Shown piece by piece: positions 5,700-47,299 of a stretch of DNA of 55,383 nt (positions are counted from its first letter, which is position 1; each line of letters opens with the position of its first letter). Source of the DNA: a virus. Lineage: Duplodnaviria > Caudoviricetes. The position numbers and the translations under genes are program-made. The notes below the pieces were generated by a model that saw only the letters and a program-made list of their open reading frames with translations, did no database searches and was not told the origin of the DNA. Location of the stretch: positions 1 through 55,383 of the IMG/VR virus record IMGVR_UViG_3300042923_000371; one strand, written 5' to 3'.

Positions 5700-6161
5700 T
5701 TGACAAATGAAACCATAAAACAAATGCTTTACAACTACAAGAAGCTTGACAAATGGATATTAGATTGTGAAAAGGAACTAAGTTTTATTAAAGAAAAAAT
5801 AGATGTCTTGTACAGTGTAGGAATTAGTACATTGTCTAATATGCCCCATGGAACAGGAATTTCAGACAATACATTTAATGCAGTAGACGGAGTAATCGAA
5901 CTAAAAGAAACCTATAATGAACGGTCAAAGGTTATTGCAAAGGAATTAAAGGAATACTACAAGCAAAAAGAACTTGTTGAGTGGATATATCCGCAGCTTA
6001 GACCGTTGCATCAGGAAATTATAGAAAAGCGATATTTTCAGAATATGGCATGGAAAGAAATATATGCAGAATCACAATTAGAAATGCAATCATACCTTGA
6101 TGCGAATACTAAAATGTATAAAGTTATTAATGGACTACTAAAACAAAAAGCAGAGAATTAA
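5700..6161 (+). CDS. RinA/ArpU-like late transcriptional activator
   Basis: MPHGTG linker, coiled coil, IIEKRYFQNMAWKEI sigma-4-like end; last gene of the replication arm. Confidence 0.7.
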   Translation: MTNETIKQMLYNYKKLDKWILDCEKELSFIKEKIDVLYSVGISTLSNMPHGTGISDNTFNAVDGVIELKETYNERSKVIAKELKEYYKQKELVEWIYPQLRPLHQEIIEKRYFQNMAWKEIYAESQLEMQSYLDANTKMYKVINGLLKQKAEN

Positions 6162-6409
6162 ATCTCTGCTTTTTTCTTTGATTCTGCTATATAGTTTTCA
6201 ATTTGCGAAAATGTATAACCTCTGTTAATGAGATATTTTATAATCATTTCAGTAATAAATGTTGCTGTTGGCTTATCTTCAAATTTTAATTCATCAGTAA
6301 AAAGCTTTTTAAGTCCTTTAGGCAAGTCAACCGACAAAGTATCGTAATTAATTTTTCTAAAGTTTTGCCTGTATTTCTTAGCTTGCTCTGTTTCGTCCCA
6401 TTTTCCCAT
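6158..6409 (-). CDS. Ribbon-helix-helix-like DNA-binding protein
   Basis: KINYDTLSVDLPKGLK pattern; last gene of the leftward operon. Confidence 0.55.
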   Translation of the reverse strand: MGKWDETEQAKKYRQNFRKINYDTLSVDLPKGLKKLFTDELKFEDKPTATFITEMIIKYLINRGYTFSQIENYIAESKKKAEI

Positions 6410-6424
6410 TGTGTGTCCTCCTGT

Positions 6425-6661
6425 TTATCTTGCTAATTTACAATATTTATCTATAACTCTATCTGCCATACTCCATACTAAGACATTTACTTCTTTATAA
6501 CTTTCGGCTCTTGCAACTTGTTCCCATATAGCTCTATCAATTTCGCTCATGCTTTCAAAAGCTTTATCTATATTATTTTGTCTTACTGCTGTAAGTTGAC
6601 GTTTTTGCCATCTTTTAAGTTGTTCATTTAATTTGATTTGTTCTTGTTCTGTATAAGTCAT
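6425..6661 (-). CDS. Hypothetical protein
   Basis: RBS GGAGG; start overlaps the recombinase stop. Confidence 0.7.
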   Translation of the reverse strand: MTYTEQEQIKLNEQLKRWQKRQLTAVRQNNIDKAFESMSEIDRAIWEQVARAESYKEVNVLVWSMADRVIDKYCKLAR

Positions 6662-7527
6662 TCTTTCCTCCTGTTTAGTGGGTTATTCTTAACCGCTTCT
6701 TTCAATTGCTTGTTATCAATATGTGTATATATTTGTGTAGTTGCCACGCTTTCATGCCCTAATATCTCCTGTAATGCTCGAATATCTGTGCCGGATTGAT
6801 ACATTAGGGTGGCTGCGGTATGTCTTAGCTTGTGTGGTGAGCCTTTTAAACCAGCTAAAGCTAAATACTTATCTAGCATAGATTCAATGCCTTTTGCTGT
6901 CATTCTCATTTTGCGGTTACTTATAAATAATGCCTTATCGTTTAAATCTTTCCTACACGTCATATAATCGTCTATGGCTAACAAAACACTGTCATTAAGG
7001 TAAATAGTCCTTTCCTTATTACCCTTGCCGATAACGGTCAATATATCGCCTTGAATATCGTCTGTATTAATATTCACTAATTCGGACAACCTTAAACCAC
7101 TGTTAAGAAATAATGTCACTATTGCAAAGTCTCTCTTGTTGTCAATCACACTTAAAAGCTTTTCGGCATCTTCTAGTTTATAATAAATCGGCAACCGCTT
7201 TTCAATTTTAGGCGTTTCTAATTCTAGTGTCGGATTATACTCAATAACTTTTAACGTTACTTGTAGGTATTTAAAGTAACTTTTAAGGCACGCAATACGT
7301 CTTGCCTTACTTTTATTTGAATTACCCCTCTCGTTGCTTAAAAACGATATAAAAGCGTGTAGGTCTGTAATGGTTATTTTCTTTAATTCCTTTATGCTGA
7401 TTTCTTTTTTCTTAAATCTTGATTTTAAAAAGTCAAAGAAAATATTTAGGTCCTTTTCGTATGCTGTTATTGTGTTGTCGGATTTTCCTTTTATGTCTTT
7501 CATGTAATTTAGATAATCGTCAATCAT
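6658..7527 (-). CDS. XerC/XerD-like tyrosine recombinase
   Basis: SAM domain (SDNTITAYEKDL), GLRLSEL, GKGNKER, PHKLRHTAAT, LGHESVATTQIYTH; likely ATG at 7527 after AAGGGG. Confidence 0.92.
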   Translation of the reverse strand: MIDDYLNYMKDIKGKSDNTITAYEKDLNIFFDFLKSRFKKKEISIKELKKITITDLHAFISFLSNERGNSNKSKARRIACLKSYFKYLQVTLKVIEYNPTLELETPKIEKRLPIYYKLEDAEKLLSVIDNKRDFAIVTLFLNSGLRLSELVNINTDDIQGDILTVIGKGNKERTIYLNDSVLLAIDDYMTCRKDLNDKALFISNRKMRMTAKGIESMLDKYLALAGLKGSPHKLRHTAATLMYQSGTDIRALQEILGHESVATTQIYTHIDNKQLKEAVKNNPLNRRKE

Positions 7528-7571
7528 TGTATCGCCCCTTTCAAAATCTTCGTGTAGGCATTTTAACCTTG

Positions 7572-7633
7572 TTTTAACGTAAGATAATATATCAGCCAAG
7601 CAAATGTTTGACTGATATATTACTTTTGTTGAA
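7572..7633. repeat. Inverted repeat upstream of the XerC-like gene (candidate recombinase site or hairpin)
   Basis: TAATATATCAG (7585-7595) / CTGATATATTA (7612-7622) perfect 11-bp arms with imperfect outer extension. Confidence 0.6.
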
Positions 7634-7639
7634 GAAACC

Positions 7640-7798
7640 TTAAATTCTTAAATGGTTAATCAGGTGTAAATCATCTTTCATGTTGTCTATTAATGCAACT
7701 AAATTATCTCTTAGCTTTTTTACTTTATCTGTATCACTTTTGTCGATTGCATCAATATACTTATCAACCAATTCTTTTAATAATTCTTCTTTGCTCAT
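7640..7798 (-). CDS. 52-aa hypothetical protein MSKEELLKELVDKY...
   Basis: Below the ORF cutoff; GGAGG RBS within the boundary repeat. Confidence 0.65.
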   Translation of the reverse strand: MSKEELLKELVDKYIDAIDKSDTDKVKKLRDNLVALIDNMKDDLHLINHLRI

Positions 7799-7809
7799 TT
7801 CATGTCCTC

Positions 7810-7971
7810 CTATGAGTTTAATTTTATAATTTCGGTATGATATTCTTTGTGGTTTAAATTAATATTAATACCTCTTTCCATTCGTTCGGCTGCTCTGAGC
7901 GATTCTGTTGATTCTAATTCCTGCACAACCTTACCTTGATTATCTTTTATTACAACTTTAAATTTTTCCAT
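7810..7971 (-). CDS. 53-aa hypothetical protein MEKFKVVIKD...AERMERGININLNH
   Basis: Below the ORF cutoff; GGAGG RBS; TAG stop lies within the boundary repeat. Confidence 0.65.
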   Translation of the reverse strand: MEKFKVVIKDNQGKVVQELESTESLRAAERMERGININLNHKEYHTEIIKLNS

Positions 7972-7992
7972 TGATACCGTCCTCCTATGAGT

Positions 7993-8253
7993 TTAATTTT
8001 CGGCTGATAAAGCTTGTATATTGTAATTTTCTATAAAATCCCTTATATATTGCGGATGCTTGCTCATTGGTAAATCTTTCATATCATATCTTGTATTTAC
8101 TCTTGTTAATAATGAGGCGTGTTTATAGTTGCCATATTTTATATGAATATGGTATTTTTCACACATTACGACATCCCCATTTTTGAAATTATCTGACCCT
8201 TTATTTTTTAATTCTTCTCTTGTTAAAATATACATATTGTCTTTGTTAAACAT
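7993..8253 (-). CDS. Hypothetical protein
   Basis: RBS GGAGG within the repeat. Confidence 0.7.
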   Translation of the reverse strand: MFNKDNMYILTREELKNKGSDNFKNGDVVMCEKYHIHIKYGNYKHASLLTRVNTRYDMKDLPMSKHPQYIRDFIENYNIQALSAEN

Positions 8254-8487
8254 CTATACCCTCCTATGAGTTTTTAAAATCTTCGATAAACCCCTATAAA
8301 TCAATCTTATTTTCAACTATTGCCGATACTCCTATAAATACCAATAAGAATAAATTCATTGATAAAAAAGTTCCCATAATTCCTCCTTGAATTAAAAGGC
8401 GGAATCGGTTATAATAACCTTACCCGCCTGATTGGTGGTTGGTGTAGCATCTCGATTGCTTGCAGGCTTCGTGCTACACCATTTTTA

Positions 8488-9081
8488 TTAGTCCATCATG
8501 CACCATTGATGCGTTCTGATTTTGTATTCACTCAATATTTGCATTGCGTCTTCCATTCTTGTTGATTCGTTAAAACTGTCTGTTAATGCCTTCCAAGCTT
8601 TTTTCAGTCCTCTTGATGTCTTGTTGTAAAATGCAGGTTCATTGTAGCTATCTTTTAAATCTCTTCCGAATACTTCTTTTTCGCTTTGTAATTCAATAAT
8701 ACAATTGGAATTTTTCAACTTATTATCAGTGATTTCAACTTCTTTGAATCCGAATCTGTTAATAAATGTTTGAAGCTTTTCGACTTGTTTGTCTTGATAT
8801 TCATTAAAAGCTTTTTCAGTTACGAATCTTGTTGAGCCATTGCCTTTATCAATTTCTGATATCATAAATTCAGATATCATTTTAATTTCTCTTTCTACGT
8901 CGATTTCCTTTAATGTATATGCTTGATTACTGCTATTGTAATTAGTAATTTCAAACCATCCTGGGCAATTTGCCATATCGCCACGATAATATATTTTTTG
9001 TCCTGTTTGGTATTTGCAAGATGCTTCTTTCTTGACTTCTTGTGTTCTCATATTTGGGAACTGTATTATTTTAGCTGCCAT
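8488..9081 (-). CDS. Hypothetical early protein (two-domain)
   Basis: 197-aa ORF with GGAGG RBS. Confidence 0.75.
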   Translation of the reverse strand: MAAKIIQFPNMRTQEVKKEASCKYQTGQKIYYRGDMANCPGWFEITNYNSSNQAYTLKEIDVEREIKMISEFMISEIDKGNGSTRFVTEKAFNEYQDKQVEKLQTFINRFGFKEVEITDNKLKNSNCIIELQSEKEVFGRDLKDSYNEPAFYNKTSRGLKKAWKALTDSFNESTRMEDAMQILSEYKIRTHQWCMMD

Positions 9082-9085
9082 TGTT

Positions 9086-9271
9086 TCAATCCTCCATTAA
9101 ATAATTTATTAATTCTTTAATACTTTCTGATTCTTTGACTGTATTTCCGTCTTTGTCTATTAAATAATAGTTGTAATAGTAATCTTTTCTATCTCCCAAG
9201 CATTGCTTTTTATAAACATTTAAGTTTTTAGCTTCTGCGAATGCTGTCAAGGCTTTTAATGACCATCGCAT
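9086..9271 (-). CDS. Hypothetical early protein
   Basis: RBS GGAGG. Confidence 0.65.
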   Translation of the reverse strand: MRWSLKALTAFAEAKNLNVYKKQCLGDRKDYYYNYYLIDKDGNTVKESESIKELINYLMED

Positions 9272-9337
9272 GTTTATCCCTCCATGAATTTAATTTTTAA
9301 TTGATAAACCATTATGTCAATTTCTATGTCTGTAAGC

Positions 9338-9382
9338 GTTGAGGGCATTTCTGCCCTGTTGGAATCTTACCAACCTTGCAAC
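9338..9382 (-). ncRNA. Structured RNA motif, copy B (three-way junction)
   Basis: Minus strand GUUG-CAAG-GUUGG[UAAGAUU]CCAAC-A-GGGCA[GAAA]UGCCC-U-CAAC. Confidence 0.6.
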
Positions 9383-9390
9383 CTCGGGAC

Positions 9391-9573
9391 TTATTCTGCT
9401 CTGAAATTAACACAGTCACAATTTTTTAATGCTATACTATCTGCTATATATTCTTTTGCTACTTCTATTGCTTCTTCTTCACTTTCTGCTGATACTGCTT
9501 GCAATGTTCCTGTGTGGTATTTTCCTGCTCCCTTATCATAAATGGTATTCCAACTAACTTTGTATTCTCTCAT
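9391..9573 (-). CDS. Hypothetical early protein
   Basis: RBS GGAGG; VSAESEEEA motif typical of small phage proteins. Confidence 0.7.
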   Translation of the reverse strand: MREYKVSWNTIYDKGAGKYHTGTLQAVSAESEEEAIEVAKEYIADSIALKNCDCVNFRAE

Positions 9574-9601
9574 TTTATACCTCCAATTTTATTGCCTTAT
9601 C

Positions 9602-9654
9602 AGGTTGAGCTTTGGGGAATCTCTTCCCCTGCTGAATTTCACAGCCTTGAACCT
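9602..9654 (-). ncRNA. Structured RNA motif, copy A (three-way junction)
   Basis: Minus strand AGGUU-CAAG-GCUG[UGAAAUU]CAGC-A-GGGGAA[GAGA]UUCCCC-AAAGCUC-AACCU. Confidence 0.6.
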
Positions 9655-9672
9655 TGCCCTGTTTAATCGTTT

Positions 9673-9837
9673 TTATTTATTCTGCCAAATTTCAAGTTTT
9701 ATAATTATTTTTTCTAATTCATTAGCTTCTTTCTTTGCACCAATCTCAAGTAATTTATAATATTTATGTCTTAATTCGTCTTTTTCGTGGTTTACAGAAC
9801 TTTTTAATTCTTCAATTTTTTCGTAATTTTGGTTCAT
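9673..9837 (-). CDS. 54-aa first gene of the leftward operon, MNQNYEKIEELKSS...
   Basis: Below the ORF cutoff; GGAGG RBS directly after the promoter. Confidence 0.65.
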   Translation of the reverse strand: MNQNYEKIEELKSSVNHEKDELRHKYYKLLEIGAKKEANELEKIIIKLEIWQNK

Positions 9838-9868
9838 TTCTCTACCTCCGATTTATTTGATTAACTAC

Positions 9869-9897
9869 ATAATATCACATATCCAAGTATCATGCAA
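9869..9897 (-). promoter_or_regulatory. Sigma-A promoter of the leftward operon
   Basis: TTGCAT-N17-TATTAT with extended -10 TG. Confidence 0.7.
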
Positions 9898-10121
9898 GAT
9901 AATTTAAGTTAAACAATTGTAACATTTATAAAATCACAACAAATCATTGAAATACTATATAATAATATATTTAACTATTGTTTTAATTAAATCAATGTGT
10001 TACAATGTAGCAGTAAAGTTATTTCAATAACTTAACAATTTTACCGGAACTATTAGAGAGCAGTCTTAATAGTTACACCAAAATGCGGTAGGAATTTCGC
10101 AATGACTACCCAATATAACAT

Positions 10122-10158
10122 AAAGGAAGCAGTTACCCCTTAGCTGACTTCTTTTTTT
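10122..10158 (+). terminator. Rho-independent terminator
   Basis: GGAAG-CAGTTA/TAGCTG-CTTC stem plus T7. Confidence 0.6.
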
Positions 10159-10170
10159 AATGTCAAATCA

Positions 10171-10303
10171 AATGCAGTGGCGGAAAGGGTAACGCATCTA
10201 AAGAATACATAGCTTATAGACGTATATTAAAATGGTTGGCTGTGCGGTGAAAGTCCGTAATAGAGTTGACGAACGTGCAAGGTCCAATTCCTTGCCTGCA
10301 ATT
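10171..10303 (+). ncRNA. tRNA-like RNA with expanded (about 80-nt) anticodon region
   Basis: Acceptor AATGCAG/CTGCAAT, D-arm TGGCGGAAAGGGTAACGC, T-arm GCAAGG-TCCAATT-CCTTGC. Confidence 0.6.
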
Positions 10304-10324
10304 TTAAAAATAAATAATTAGGAG

Positions 10325-11026
10325 GTGCTTTTAATGGCACAGAAGAAAAAAGCTGTCACTAGCACAGCCGCCAATATAAAACAAAAAACTAAAGGTACAA
10401 ATATACCACCCACAGATGAAACGTGCGTTAAAACTCAATCTGTGACCTCTGATAATGATATAAATGATAAAAACTTAGAAGTTAAGCCTGGCGGAATCAA
10501 AAAAGACGGTCAACCATGGATTCCTGGTCGTAAAGCTGTCGAAGAAAAATTAACTCCTGATTTCTTGGCCCGTTTAACTGCTTATGCATCACAATCTATT
10601 TCAAATTTAAAGATAGCTGAAATGATAGGTATATCGTCAGCATCATTTTATAAATTAATGGGCGAAAGTCCTGATTTTAAACTTGCTTACGAAAAAGGCA
10701 TAGATTACCGAAAATATGAACTAGAAAAAGCACTTATTAAAAGAGCAGAAGGCTACACAGCAGAAGAAAAGCAAACAGTTATTACAGATGACCCTGAAAA
10801 GGGAAGAATAGTTAAAAACACTGTTACTCAAAAAAACTATGTTCCAGATACTACTGCTTTAATATTTAGCTTGAAAAACCTTTATGGCGATAAATATAAA
10901 GATAGAGTTGAATCGGTTAATACTGTAAACATAAATGTGCAACAAATTCAGAACATTCCCGATGAAGAACTGTTGAAATATGCGAATATGGATTTAATTG
11001 AGGATGCCGACTATCAGATAGAATAA
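10325..11026 (+). CDS. terS: Terminase small subunit (HTH-containing)
   Basis: HTH (LKIAEMIGISSASFY), ELEKALIKRAEGY and PDTTALIFSLKN motifs typical of TerS. Confidence 0.75.
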   Translation: MLLMAQKKKAVTSTAANIKQKTKGTNIPPTDETCVKTQSVTSDNDINDKNLEVKPGGIKKDGQPWIPGRKAVEEKLTPDFLARLTAYASQSISNLKIAEMIGISSASFYKLMGESPDFKLAYEKGIDYRKYELEKALIKRAEGYTAEEKQTVITDDPEKGRIVKNTVTQKNYVPDTTALIFSLKNLYGDKYKDRVESVNTVNINVQQIQNIPDEELLKYANMDLIEDADYQIE

Positions 11027-14464: not shown

Positions 14465-14535
14465 GCCGATATAGTTCAATGGTAGAACAACTGTCCTGTA
14501 AATAGTAAGCGTGGGTTCAATTCCCTCTTTCGGCT
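14465..14535 (+). tRNA. tRNA-Thr(TGT), degenerate
   Basis: Acceptor GCCGATA/TTTCGGC, D-arm GTTC/GAAC, anticodon stem ACTGT/ATAGT with loop CCTGTAA, T-loop TTCAATT; C33 and two T-T mismatches. Confidence 0.7.
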
Positions 14536-14559: not shown

Positions 14560-16248
14560 TTGTCAGATAAAGAAAAATCAATACTTGAACAAATGCCTTT
14601 ATGGCAAAGAAAAATTATTAGCACTAGAGAAATGGAACGTAGGAAAATTGTTAGAGATATTACATATTTCTTTGAAAACTACATGTTCATTGAAAATAAA
14701 GATGGAAAAACACCAGAAGAACGTTCAGTGCTATTTAAAATGTTTCCTGAACAGAAAAGAGTATTGGAAGAAATAGAAAGTAAATCAAAAAACGTAATAA
14801 TAAAAGCTAGACAATTAGGGTTAACATGGTTAGCAGTAGGATATGGAACGCATGGTTGCATAAGAACTCAACAATATACAGTAGCAATATTATCACAGAC
14901 AGAAGAGTATATGTTTGCAGCAATAGACAGGGTAGAATATGTACTTATGCGACTTCCAAAGTGGTTAATGCAAGAGTATAAAAAGGAAACAGCAGAACAC
15001 AATAGCACGTATTTGTATGAAAAAAAATCAGACGAAGTTATTATATATCATCCAACGGGAGTAGACGGAGTAAGGGTTACAAGTAAAATTAATGGTTATG
15101 TATCAACAGAGCGTTCAGGTCGTTCTATAACAGCCGATTTAATAATACTAGATGAATGGGCATTCCATGATAATGCTGAATTGGTATTCGCAGGAATTGG
15201 ACCTACAATCAATAGACCTGACAGTGGTAAGCTAATAGGAATAAGCACTAATAAAAGGGGTTCGTTTTTTGAAGAAATTGTACTAGATTGTATTGAAAAT
15301 AATGCTGAAATGGGCTTTAATTTACTATTTTTATCAGTTTTTGCAGACCCTAGAAGAACACAAGAATGGTACGAACAAACTAAGAAAACATTCAAAAACA
15401 CATGGCGACAAGAGTACCCAGAGAAAATAGAAGATGCTTTATCGGCAGGCGATTTGACAGCTTTTCCAGAGTTTTCAAGAGAAATACACGTTTGTGAACC
15501 ATTTGAGATACCTAAACATTGGGTTAGGTGGGCTAGTTGCGATAATGGAATGGGCGGAACAAGAGACCCATTTTGTTGGCTTAAAGCAGCAATATCCGAA
15601 GATGGAACAACATACGTTTATTATGAATATTCAACAGAAAAAGGCAAAGGTGATTCAACATATTATTCAGACCAAGCAGTTAAATTTATGGATGATTGCA
15701 AAATAGATATAACAGACGAAGTAAGACAAGAAATAGAAAGTTATCATTTAGGATTTGAAACTGATGAAGTTGAGCAATACGCATTTGAAAAACTTCAATA
15801 TGTAGTTTTTGGACTAGATGCATTTAATAAAGATGTAGCCAAAGGAACAGGAAAAAGCCTTATGGATATATATAAAAATGCAGGCTTTTCATATCCGGCA
15901 GTTAAAGCAGTTACGGAACGAAAGCTAGGCAAAGACACTATACATGAATATTTAAAACCGTTTGATGATTTGATAACAGGTAAGAAAACAGCTAAGTTGC
16001 AAATATTTAATTCGTGCAAATATTTGATAAGTCATTTACCTAAGTTGGTAGTTGATGAAAACAATCCAAATGTAATAGCTGGAAATTCAGCTATTGACAA
16101 TACGGCAGATGCCTTAAAATATTTATTGATTGGTAGTCCAAGAAACGGCACTCAAAAAATTGAAATGGAAGAAACAAATGTTGCAAAATTTAAAAAATCT
16201 AAAATTAAAAAATTACATGGTAGAAAACAGAAAGGAGTAATAAATTAA
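14560..16248 (+). CDS. terL: Terminase large subunit
   Basis: KARQLGLT Walker A, IILDEWA Walker B, WRQEYP, C-terminal nuclease DALKY. Confidence 0.93.
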   Translation: MSDKEKSILEQMPLWQRKIISTREMERRKIVRDITYFFENYMFIENKDGKTPEERSVLFKMFPEQKRVLEEIESKSKNVIIKARQLGLTWLAVGYGTHGCIRTQQYTVAILSQTEEYMFAAIDRVEYVLMRLPKWLMQEYKKETAEHNSTYLYEKKSDEVIIYHPTGVDGVRVTSKINGYVSTERSGRSITADLIILDEWAFHDNAELVFAGIGPTINRPDSGKLIGISTNKRGSFFEEIVLDCIENNAEMGFNLLFLSVFADPRRTQEWYEQTKKTFKNTWRQEYPEKIEDALSAGDLTAFPEFSREIHVCEPFEIPKHWVRWASCDNGMGGTRDPFCWLKAAISEDGTTYVYYEYSTEKGKGDSTYYSDQAVKFMDDCKIDITDEVRQEIESYHLGFETDEVEQYAFEKLQYVVFGLDAFNKDVAKGTGKSLMDIYKNAGFSYPAVKAVTERKLGKDTIHEYLKPFDDLITGKKTAKLQIFNSCKYLISHLPKLVVDENNPNVIAGNSAIDNTADALKYLLIGSPRNGTQKIEMEETNVAKFKKSKIKKLHGRKQKGVIN

Positions 16249-46254: not shown

Positions 46255-46872
46255 GTGAGTACAAAGCTAAGTGCCATTATCGGACAGTACAGAAATATAC
46301 TTGCTACCGATGGCATTGTGGATAAAGAAGAATTAATCGAAATGCTGAAAGTTGACACTGAAATAATAGTCAAAGATTACAACAAATTAGCAGATAAAAT
46401 TTTAGACAACATAGAGGAATTAAAAGCCTATGCCTTACCAGTAAATAAAAAGCAAGCAGAAAAAGACCGCATGAAATTGTACAAGCAAGGATTGAGTGAC
46501 GAAGAGATTGCTCTAATAGAAGGTGTCACTTCAACCACAATATACAGTTGGCGAAAGGTAAGAAAATTATCAACTAATCTTACTAAGCTTCAACGTGAAA
46601 AAGCAGAAAAATATGAAAAGCGATTGGAGTTTTACAATCAAGGTTTAACGGACAAGGAAATTGCTGAAAATTGTAATGAGAAGGTTAGTACTATTAAAGG
46701 TTGGCGAGAACGTAACAAATTAACTGCAAATTCAGACACTATAAAAGAAAAGTGCTTAAAAATGCTTGATGAAGGCTGCGGAGTAAAGGAAGTTTCAGAA
46801 TCACAAAACATCTGTTCAACAACATTGTACAAATGGAAAAGTAGGAGGAAAAAAGCTAATGCAAAAATATAG
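46255..46872 (+). CDS. Triple-HTH DNA-binding protein
   Basis: Three repeats of the QGLSD.EIA...TI..WR type. Confidence 0.7.
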   Translation: MSTKLSAIIGQYRNILATDGIVDKEELIEMLKVDTEIIVKDYNKLADKILDNIEELKAYALPVNKKQAEKDRMKLYKQGLSDEEIALIEGVTSTTIYSWRKVRKLSTNLTKLQREKAEKYEKRLEFYNQGLTDKEIAENCNEKVSTIKGWRERNKLTANSDTIKEKCLKMLDEGCGVKEVSESQNICSTTLYKWKSRRKKANAKI

Positions 46873-47299
46873 ATGTGAGGAATGCGGACGGATATTTAAT
46901 AAGCCTGTTGAAATTCAAGAGGAACATGGAGAAGTATTTGTAGTATGTCCAACCTGCCTAAGTACAGATTACTGTAACGTCTTTAAATGTTCTTTGTGCG
47001 ACAGATATATAACTTATGATGAAATACACAAGGATATATGTTACGAGTGTGCAACTAAGGAATACGCCGACAGGCTAGGTTTAAAATTCATCGAAGTCAA
47101 CAAAGATTTCTACCTTGATTTTTACGGTGTTGAAAAGGTGGACAAGGATTTAAAGTCAAATTTAATTGAAATTTTAGAGAAAGACTTTTTAAGCAAGGTT
47201 GACATGGACACTGACTGGAACAAACAGCTTAAATCAGTTAAAGAATATTGCTTGGAAGATATTGACGATTGGATTGAGTTTTTAAAGGAGGAAATCTAA
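46859..47299 (+). CDS. Zn-finger protein
   Basis: Four CxxC pairs. Confidence 0.7.
   Translation: MQKYRCEECGRIFNKPVEIQEEHGEVFVVCPTCLSTDYCNVFKCSLCDRYITYDEIHKDICYECATKEYADRLGLKFIEVNKDFYLDFYGVEKVDKDLKSNLIEILEKDFLSKVDMDTDWNKQLKSVKEYCLEDIDDWIEFLKEEI

Follow-up and report, generated by a model that had tools for sequence, protein, structure and literature searches.

Two small junction RNA elements in a phage operon as probable minimal relatives of the RAGATH-36 core

The complete virus record IMGVR_UViG_3300042923_000371 (Duplodnaviria; Caudoviricetes), which is 55,383 bp long with direct terminal repeats and is referred to here as the window, carries two copies of a small junction RNA element in consecutive intergenic gaps of a leftward, minus-strand operon. 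Copy 1 lies between genes 1 and 2 and copy 2 between genes 2 and 3. Judged from their sequences, these elements appear to be a minimal, stand-alone, and newly found variant of a known but uncharacterized phage RNA core, part of which is modeled in Rfam as RAGATH-36 (RF03104), and the two copies are very probably homologous to that core. The core itself is conserved and tertiary structured, lies on the transcribed strand between cistrons or tRNA genes, and is capable of standing alone.

An earlier note on this DNA had described the copies as sharing a P1 stem, the strand CAAG, a hairpin with a 7-nt loop, and a GNRA hairpin. This architecture was read directly on the minus strand, the two hairpins (H1 and H2; Table 1) are contained in the minimum-free-energy folds, and the outer bounds given in the note, 9654 and 9338, are the exact outer ends of its P1. 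With pairs numbered outward from the loops, three in H1 and two in H2 have changed on both sides between the copies (double, compensatory changes), bearing out the claim of compensatory change between them, and both retain the GNRA loops and positions U1 and A5 of the 7-nt loop. U1 and A5 form the sequence requirement of a T-loop, in which they make a reverse-Hoogsteen pair and a base is intercalated, and, as read from the letters alone, H1 would be a T-loop-type hairpin in both copies, as had been proposed. The single A said to separate the hairpins lies between them in copy 1 (A9630); its counterpart in copy 2 may instead pair with U9342, which would place H1 directly next to H2, the arrangement of the family described below. 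Copy 1 also contains a 7-nt strand between H2 and the 3' closing strand that the note had not recorded; in copy 2, H2 is followed by CAAC (9341-9338) and then GCUUA. Neither copy has a U-tail, no U run follows either H2, and none of the five terminator-like sites in 5900-10400 lies within 9300-9700, in agreement with the statement that the elements are not terminators. The minimum-free-energy structure of copy 2 pairs GAGGUUG with CAAC-G-CUU. For copy 1, the closing options are AGGUU/AACCU (-17.5 kcal/mol), GGGC/GCUC (-18.3 kcal/mol; GGGC 9656-9659 with GCUC 9607-9610), and CAGG/CCUG (-18.5 kcal/mol), compared to -14.9 kcal/mol for the hairpins alone. A three-way junction is a reasonable drawing of this predicted fold, with a weak closing helix.

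Relatives were retrieved from the viral collection using exact sequence patterns. A scan for GGTANGATTCC followed, after a gap of 10 to 30 bases, by AACGCTTA returned 45 stretches; 34 distinct sequences carried RGCGAGGTT at a fixed distance upstream, though this block is absent from the retrieval pattern. A second pattern, GAGGTTCGA followed by GGTANGATTCC, gave strong model matches in 17 of 20 new loci, and a third, GCGAGGTTCGA followed by AACGCTNA, gave matches in 6 of 15 new loci, all with the loop UA(C/A)GAUU despite the loop having been left free. With exact-pattern retrieval, the invariance of the fixed blocks arises partly by construction, and reliance is placed on the freed blocks and on covariation. 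The three patterns, each of which frees different blocks, recover the same blocks; with the pairing evidence given below, this marks the family as a real structured RNA. Its consensus reads AAGCG, AGGUUCGAU, a variable H0, UGG, a 5-bp H1 with the loop UANGAUU, a variable and abutting H2, (U)AACGCUUA, and a base denoted N'. It appears to be a widespread RNA family found mainly in uncultivated gut and rumen phages, and the core also occurs in six stretches on contigs of genome bins labeled Oscillospiraceae (three), Clostridiales (one), Herbinix (one, with two copies), and Saccharibacteria (one). A blastn search of GenBank phages with a family core gave no match.

In an alignment of 20 family sequences, 99.1% of the cells hold pairs, compared to 78.7% in shuffled alignments (0 of 500 reach the observed value) and 31 to 43% with slid partners. 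Double changes are present at three of the five H1 pairs and five of the six H2 pairs, and the pair at the base of H2 is G-U in 16 of the 20 sequences. Base 3 of the T-loop and N', the base after CGCUUA, form a Watson-Crick combination in all 20 sequences (CG in 13, UA in 4, and AU in 3; alignment A2, columns 42 and 86). A wider regular-expression tally found the same in 44 of 46 parses, the two exceptions lacking the family 5' block. The consensus structure (CS) line of the Rfam model marks both positions as unpaired. This covariation appears to mark a T-loop that a distant base caps, as is the case at the tRNA elbow.

The closing helix of the family can adopt two mutually exclusive registers, AAGCG/CGCUU and GAGGUU/AAC-CUU (with a bulged G). 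Covariation cannot choose between them, since both are near invariant in the 36 parsed members, and the few changes seen lean towards the second. A change of U84 to C (parsed at L066 and L073 and read at L078) turns a G-U into a G-C pair in the second register and breaks the first, and a G6-to-C change, seen in window copy 2 and in one of the copies at L058, disrupts the first register alone. Copy 2 fits only the second register and copy 1 fits either. The P1 of the earlier note, GGUU with AAC, corresponds to a register that could form in every family member examined. A double T-loop, in which GGUUCGA would be a second T-loop docking on GG, was set aside; it conflicts with the GAGGUU/AAC-CUU register and the positions are invariant.

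The membership of the window copies was assessed using R1, a covariance model built from these 20 family sequences, all from foreign phages, and containing no window sequence, for which a shortened calibration gives rough E-values. Run with filters off on both strands of the window, R1 gave 18 matches at E up to 10, with copy 2 first (26.3 bits) and copy 1 second (18.9 bits). Filters-off searches elsewhere, in about 69 kb of loci (about 124 kb with the window included), gave a top non-family match of 13.8 bits. The homology is rated as it is because the copies rank first and second against this background maximum. A third match in the window (47188-47235; 12.2 bits) is attributed to chance; it lies inside an open reading frame (ORF) at 46859-47299 and has no hairpins. 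The earlier view of the copies as structured RNAs of the transcribed strand is supported. Copy 2 carries three exact family blocks, GAGGUU, GGUAAGAUUCC, and AACGCUUA, in the right order and at the right spacing, and its loop also occurs among family members. Copy 1 shares AAGGUU plus either AAAGCUCA or AACCUGA. Both copies have a deletion of H0, which lies between GGUUCGAU and UGG in the family; among the other reduced relatives, L011 is also without H0. Two MAFFT alignments of the copies (A4 and A5) were not structure consistent. The window copies appear to be the most divergent members of the family.

A comparison of the region 9200-9900 with Rfam using cmscan, which the earlier note had proposed as a check, did return RAGATH-36 on copy 2 (26.1 bits, E 0.0034, 9255-9377, in E-value mode), but the match fell below the gathering cutoff of 70 bits, and copy 1 had no match to this model at E up to 10. 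The agreement of copy 2 is restricted to model positions 1 to 47, where it is almost base for base. The 5' module of RAGATH-36, a hairpin with the loop UANGAUU, an abutting hairpin, and then AACGCUUA, is exact in copy 2 and partial in copy 1 (loop UGAAAUU, 3' block AAAGCUCA), and both RAGATH-36 and the window copies are intergenic in phages. In contrast, the 3' domain (model positions ~48 to 128) forms few standard pairs in the cmscan alignment past 9330, and the 3' two-thirds of the model is absent from the window. No other Rfam family matched 9200-9900 at E<1, and the models for tRNA, tmRNA, RNase P, and self-cleaving ribozymes (hammerhead, twister, twister-sister, pistol, hatchet, and HDV-like) gave no match there at E up to 10; among the ribozyme and tRNA/tmRNA models, one family member matched just twister-P3 (13.3 bits, E 7.8). 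The Rfam RAGATH-36 model begins ~14 nt inside the conserved core and omits AAGCGAGGUUCGA and H0. It scored above threshold in 5 of 16 scanned loci, all 16 of which contain the core. RAGATH-36 as modeled appears to be a fragment, taken from the middle, of a larger phage RNA. No paper in the library that was searched names RAGATH-36, and a search combining RAGATH, tRNA, and phage found no title or abstract on it. The word "RAGATH" is absent from the main text of PMC5737381, whose supplements may describe the motif, and passages of PMC13085918 on such motifs concern RAGATH-18 and RAGATH-6. The suggestion that the motif might be undescribed is borne out only in part; the subthreshold RAGATH-36 match of copy 2 and the match of both copies to the core model indicate that the elements are probably not a wholly new motif. 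The observation made in the earlier note is confirmed, and its interpretation is partly supported.

Family members are usually located within or next to phage tRNA arrays. Same-strand tRNA genes are present in the locus for 31 of 41 family hits, and opposite-strand tRNAs occur only in L009; hits are often found within arrays of 12 to 17 tRNAs, and others lie between same-strand ORFs. No same-strand ORF of at least 70 amino acids (aa) overlapped the hit in the 15 cases examined. Among 21 flanking proteins, 18 were without a PHROG family match and there was no constant neighboring gene, which argues against a gene-specific regulator. At two loci, a family member is directly downstream of an intrinsic terminator hairpin. 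The core forms the 5' domain of a 230- to 450-nt RNA, consisting of the junction core, an optional middle part, and then three downstream blocks: GGAAnUGCUnCC (in a hairpin loop), GUGCAnCCUU, and GGUnAAA. A tRNA gene starts 17 to 23 nt after the last of these blocks in 10 of 29 family hits examined. Loci with the long RNA include L013/L049, L011/L051, L014/L048, L005, L018, L062, L066, and L078. Two loci, L009 and L058, have two copies of the core 340 to 950 nt apart, and at both of them no downstream blocks follow the first copy ahead of the next tRNA or copy. The long RNA contains words resembling the RNase P S-domain; an identity as RNase P RNA was rejected, as the Rfam RNase P models gave no match and local alignments of five phage RNAs with three RNase P RNAs from the genome bins holding L057, L058, and L061 scored 14 to 20, compared to shuffle means of 17.6 to 19.4.

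Some of these loci have further features. In one clade (L005 2700-2840, L044, L018, L062, and L009 upstream of 1088), where the longest ORFs crossing the core are 38 to 120 aa, a conserved small ORF traverses the 5' core strand and has its stop codon in the H0 loop; at L005, it has 42 codons from ATG, a strong ribosome-binding site, and a C terminus reading ...YGFGGxYLxxGxxWFTL(K/R)RGSMP*. A stretch of ~2.5 kb on the Herbinix-labeled bin contig (L058 4190-6770) is nearly ORF free; besides four tRNAs and a tmRNA, it contains two junction cores and further apparently structured sequence without an Rfam match. RAGATH-4 and/or RAGATH-16 scored above threshold 1 to 4 kb from the core at six loci (L004, L005, L009, L018, L020, and L023), the RAGATH-16 match at L023 being 4 kb from the core and barely over the cutoff. 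Phages with the core plus RAGATH-4 or RAGATH-16 hold several orphan structured RNAs.

In the window, the leftward operon runs for ~3.7 kb from ~9860 to a bidirectional terminator-like site at 6145-6174. This site consists of a perfect 12-bp hairpin flanked by U/A tracts and lies between converging leftward and rightward gene blocks. A terS-like gene (10325-11026) diverges from the operon. Seven small operon proteins scanned against PHROG had no family match (ORFans). Gene 2 ends close to copy 2, with 5 nt between its stop codon and GAGGUUG. A promoter-like site on the minus strand at 9293-9320 (TTGACA, 16 nt, AAAAAT) is past copy 2 and ahead of gene 3; the total number of such sites in the scan did not exceed the chance expectation. 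Low-depth contigs (depth 2 to 3.3) from a second soil run align to the window over 9327-9395 (4 differences) and 9600-9665 (3 differences) and diverge from it outside these parts, the part over copy 2 being only 69 nt long. One of these contigs fuses 8489 to 9327 beside copy 2, skipping 837 bases with genes 3 and 4. The protein encoded by gene 4 had no relative in viral contigs, and a blastn search of 8400-10100 against GenBank phages gave no match; with copy 2 as the query, just three short chance matches inside genes were returned.

Table 1. Operon genes and parts of the two junction RNA modules in the window, with coordinates
Feature	Position	Strand	Remarks
Gene 1	9673-9837	minus	54 aa; upstream of copy 1; no PHROG family
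Gene 2	9391-9573	minus	60 aa; copies 1 and 2 on either side; no PHROG family
Gene 3	9086-9271	minus	61 aa; starts 62 nt past the copy 2 3' block (A9333)
Gene 4	8488-9081	minus	197 aa
Tyrosine integrase	6658-7599	minus	Same operon, after several further small genes
Copy 1 junction module	9602-9662	minus	Gap between genes 1 and 2; R1 E 0.0084, full model; sequence reading
Copy 1 closing helix, 5' strand AGGUU	9650-9654	minus	Pairs with AACCU 9602-9606
Copy 1 CAAG	9646-9649	minus	Sequence reading
Copy 1 H1	9631-9645	minus	GCUG 9645-9642 / CAGC 9634-9631; 7-nt loop UGAAAUU 9641-9635; loop U1, A5; sequence and fold
Copy 1 A9630	9630	minus	Single base between H1 and H2
Copy 1 H2	9614-9629	minus	GGGGAA 9629-9624 / UUCCCC 9619-9614; loop GAGA; sequence and fold
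Copy 1 7-nt strand AAAGCUC	9613-9607	minus	Between H2 and AACCU 9606-9602
Copy 2 junction module	9333-9385	minus	Gap between genes 2 and 3; R1 match 9329-9404, E 8.4e-5; RAGATH-36 match
Copy 2 GAGGUUG, then CAAG	9385-9379, 9378-9375	minus	Sequence reading
Copy 2 H1	9358-9374	minus	GUUGG 9374-9370 / CCAAC 9362-9358; loop UAAGAUU 9369-9363
Copy 2 H2	9342-9357	minus	AGGGCA 9357-9352 / UGCCCU 9347-9342; loop GAAA; abuts H1
Copy 2 3' block CAACGCUU	9334-9341	minus	Then A9333; 7 bp with GAGGUUG 9379-9385, G9337 bulged; minimum-free-energy fold

The explanation put forward here is that the copies are paralogous minimal junction modules of the family core that act in cis in the processing or stability of the operon RNA. 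Each copy would be a small multihelix junction RNA that folds autonomously, closed by a short helix and made up of a T-loop-type hairpin with a variable hairpin abutting it. It would represent the conserved 5' core reduced to a minimum, with H0 lost and no 3' domain. Both would be transcribed within the leftward operon and would act as compact, tertiary-locked structures punctuating the polycistronic RNA. After processing, the modules may delimit or shield the RNA ends and may thereby set the relative stability of neighboring cistrons. Taken as a whole, this statement is tentative, its chances falling a little short of even; that the copies have a cis-acting role of some kind at the RNA level is fairly likely.

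Several results weigh against these assignments. The other family members score 31.8 to 90.1 bits, so the window copies, far lower, have the lowest scores of all hits, and in a pooled search of 831 kb with default filters, copy 2 was recovered (E 0.0013) and copy 1 was not listed. The tertiary position in copy 2 is A:C, which is not a Watson-Crick pair; for copy 1 it depends on which 3' block is homologous, being A:A with AAAGCUCA and A:U with AACCUGA. At two positions, the copy 1 loop differs from UA(C/A/U)GAUU, the loop of the family. The fold z-scores of the single sequences are weak (-1.1 to -1.4), and the closing helix is thermodynamically marginal, with competing registers. The window contains none of the downstream blocks of the long RNA. 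At gathering thresholds, its only Rfam match is a tRNA (14465-14535, 63.4 bits), the single tRNA gene of the phage, which is on the opposite strand and 5 kb off and is followed shortly by the large terminase gene (14560-16248). At two loci encoding a relative of the terS-like protein (L054 and L055; 70% identical over the aligned part), R1 gave no match above 13.8 bits, and the element is absent within 5 kb. An exact-pattern search for window-like copies found none in the viral or metagenome collections; it returned two stretches from viral contigs, both without hairpins, and one from metagenome contigs that was within a coding region and had no R1 match, and all three were rejected. A specific role in processing or stability, suggested by the position and compactness of the copies and among those proposed in the earlier note, is plausible but, taken by itself, less likely than not.

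It is possible that the resemblance of the copies to the family arose by chance from two ordinary intergenic hairpin pairs, and the moderate bit scores, the rough E-values, and the weak fold z-scores are what such an origin would give. This is very unlikely, as two independent models, RF03104 and R1, match the same place, copy 2 has its three exact blocks in the correct order and spacing, and the background maximum is 13.8 bits in ~124 kb. A better prospect, though still an improbable one, is that the copies are decayed or hitchhiking relics without an RNA function, forming linker DNA where small gene cassettes swap by recombination. Their position as the lowest-scoring family hits, their having lost H0, the tertiary pair, and the 3' domain, the contig that joins 8489 to 9327 and skips the stretch with genes 3 and 4 beside copy 2, and the location of gene 2 between two direct copies would all fit this origin. 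Decaying DNA would not be expected to keep both hairpins intact in both copies through five compensatory double changes, nor do the retained GNRA loops and U1/A5 loop positions favor decay, and the G-U pairs and strand specificity of the family point to RNA. An integron attC-like recombination site, considered on account of the integrase in the operon, was set aside in view of the RNA-type covariation, the G-U pairs, the tertiary pair, and the same-strand tRNA linkage.

As probable as the relic origin, and hence also unlikely, is a tRNA-elbow mimic or cleavage signal, in which the T-loop hairpin and its docking partner would imitate the T-loop/D-loop corner and RNase P, RNase Z, or self-cleavage would cut the transcript at the module. 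The T-arm and T-loop of the tRNA elbow, the RNase P S-domain, and T-box stem I share with the elements a 7-nt loop with U1 and A5. In the family, loop position 3 pairs with a distant base that comes after a conserved A, much as G18-G19 and C56 do in tRNA, and its covariation with N' resembles the G19:C56 contact. The sequence of the junction strand, GGUUCGAU, resembles that of a canonical T-arm, family members lie within same-strand tRNA arrays, and a tRNA begins where the long RNA ends in the 10 of 29 hits noted above; near-invariant nucleotides at the junction, combined with variable helices at the periphery and a small size, are typical of small ribozymes. However, the helix order is not that of a tRNA, since H2 comes after the T-type hairpin and before the 3' closing strand. 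There is no cloverleaf, none of the Rfam models for tRNA, tmRNA, RNase P, or self-cleaving ribozymes matched 9200-9900, and alignment scores with three RNase P RNAs are no better than those of shuffles. The window copies also do not clearly keep the tertiary pair, which is missing in copy 2 and, under one of two alignments, in copy 1.

The earlier note had drawn an analogy with HK022 put RNAs. The putL and putR sites of HK022 are two stem-loops of about 60 to 70 nt with at most one base between them. The window copies, too, are two stem-loops in a phage operon with one base (copy 1) or none (copy 2) between, and put-type processive antitermination, in which adjacent hairpins would bind RNA polymerase and resist terminators and Rho along the operon, might serve a ~3.7-kb operon that reaches the bidirectional terminator at 6145-6174; relatives in long untranslated tRNA arrays might benefit from protection against Rho. 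Yet the operon has no minus-strand terminator-like site before 6174, and the copies follow genes 1 and 2 rather than coming just after promoters. Family members are found mid-array, between genes, or, at two loci, directly downstream of terminator hairpins, are not consistently promoter proximal, and show nothing that ties them to RNA polymerase. Features not known from put include a conserved multihelix junction that a third helix closes, the T-loop contact at the tertiary level, and an association with tRNA arrays. A put-like antitermination role is unsupported, and its probability is very small indeed. A protein or small-ligand site controlling the translation or decay of the flanking small genes, like an operator or riboswitch, is about as unlikely as a chance resemblance. 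The highly conserved unpaired nucleotides around the junction resemble an aptamer and copy 1 ends 28 nt ahead of the gene 2 start codon, but neither window copy overlaps a ribosome-binding site, no particular gene regularly follows family members (18 of the 21 proteins encoded beside them being unmatched), and many hits are followed by tRNAs instead of ORFs. Among other phage RNAs, GOLLD and ROOL are described in passages of PMC5737381 as large structured RNAs of unknown function that are often beside tRNA genes in phages or prophages. The family resembles them as a structured phage RNA often adjoining tRNA genes; it differs in that neither GOLLD nor ROOL gave an Rfam match, the present RNA is far smaller, and just a 60-nt core is contained in the window.

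Starting from this window, three points emerged on RAGATH-36. The conserved core reaches further 5' than the Rfam model, it has a covarying tertiary T-loop contact, and it forms the front of a much longer RNA that ends at a tRNA gene in many loci. The window adds that the core can exist alone, minimized and duplicated, inside a protein-coding operon, which suggests that it is an autonomous functional unit, and the stand-alone form offers a 55- to 60-nt version for experiments on cleavage, protection, or binding. A more ambitious proposal is that the junction core (60 to 75 nt) is the heart of an undescribed phage RNA class, locked by the T-loop and either self-cleaving or recruiting the host tRNA-processing machinery, which would mature the 230- to 450-nt RNA abutting tRNA genes and whose stand-alone form would punctuate protein-coding operons. 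This proposal is distinctly improbable; if true, such cleavage or recruitment would be a viral counterpart of mitochondrial "tRNA punctuation." If the core does direct RNA processing, it would represent a new way for phages to segment their transcripts.

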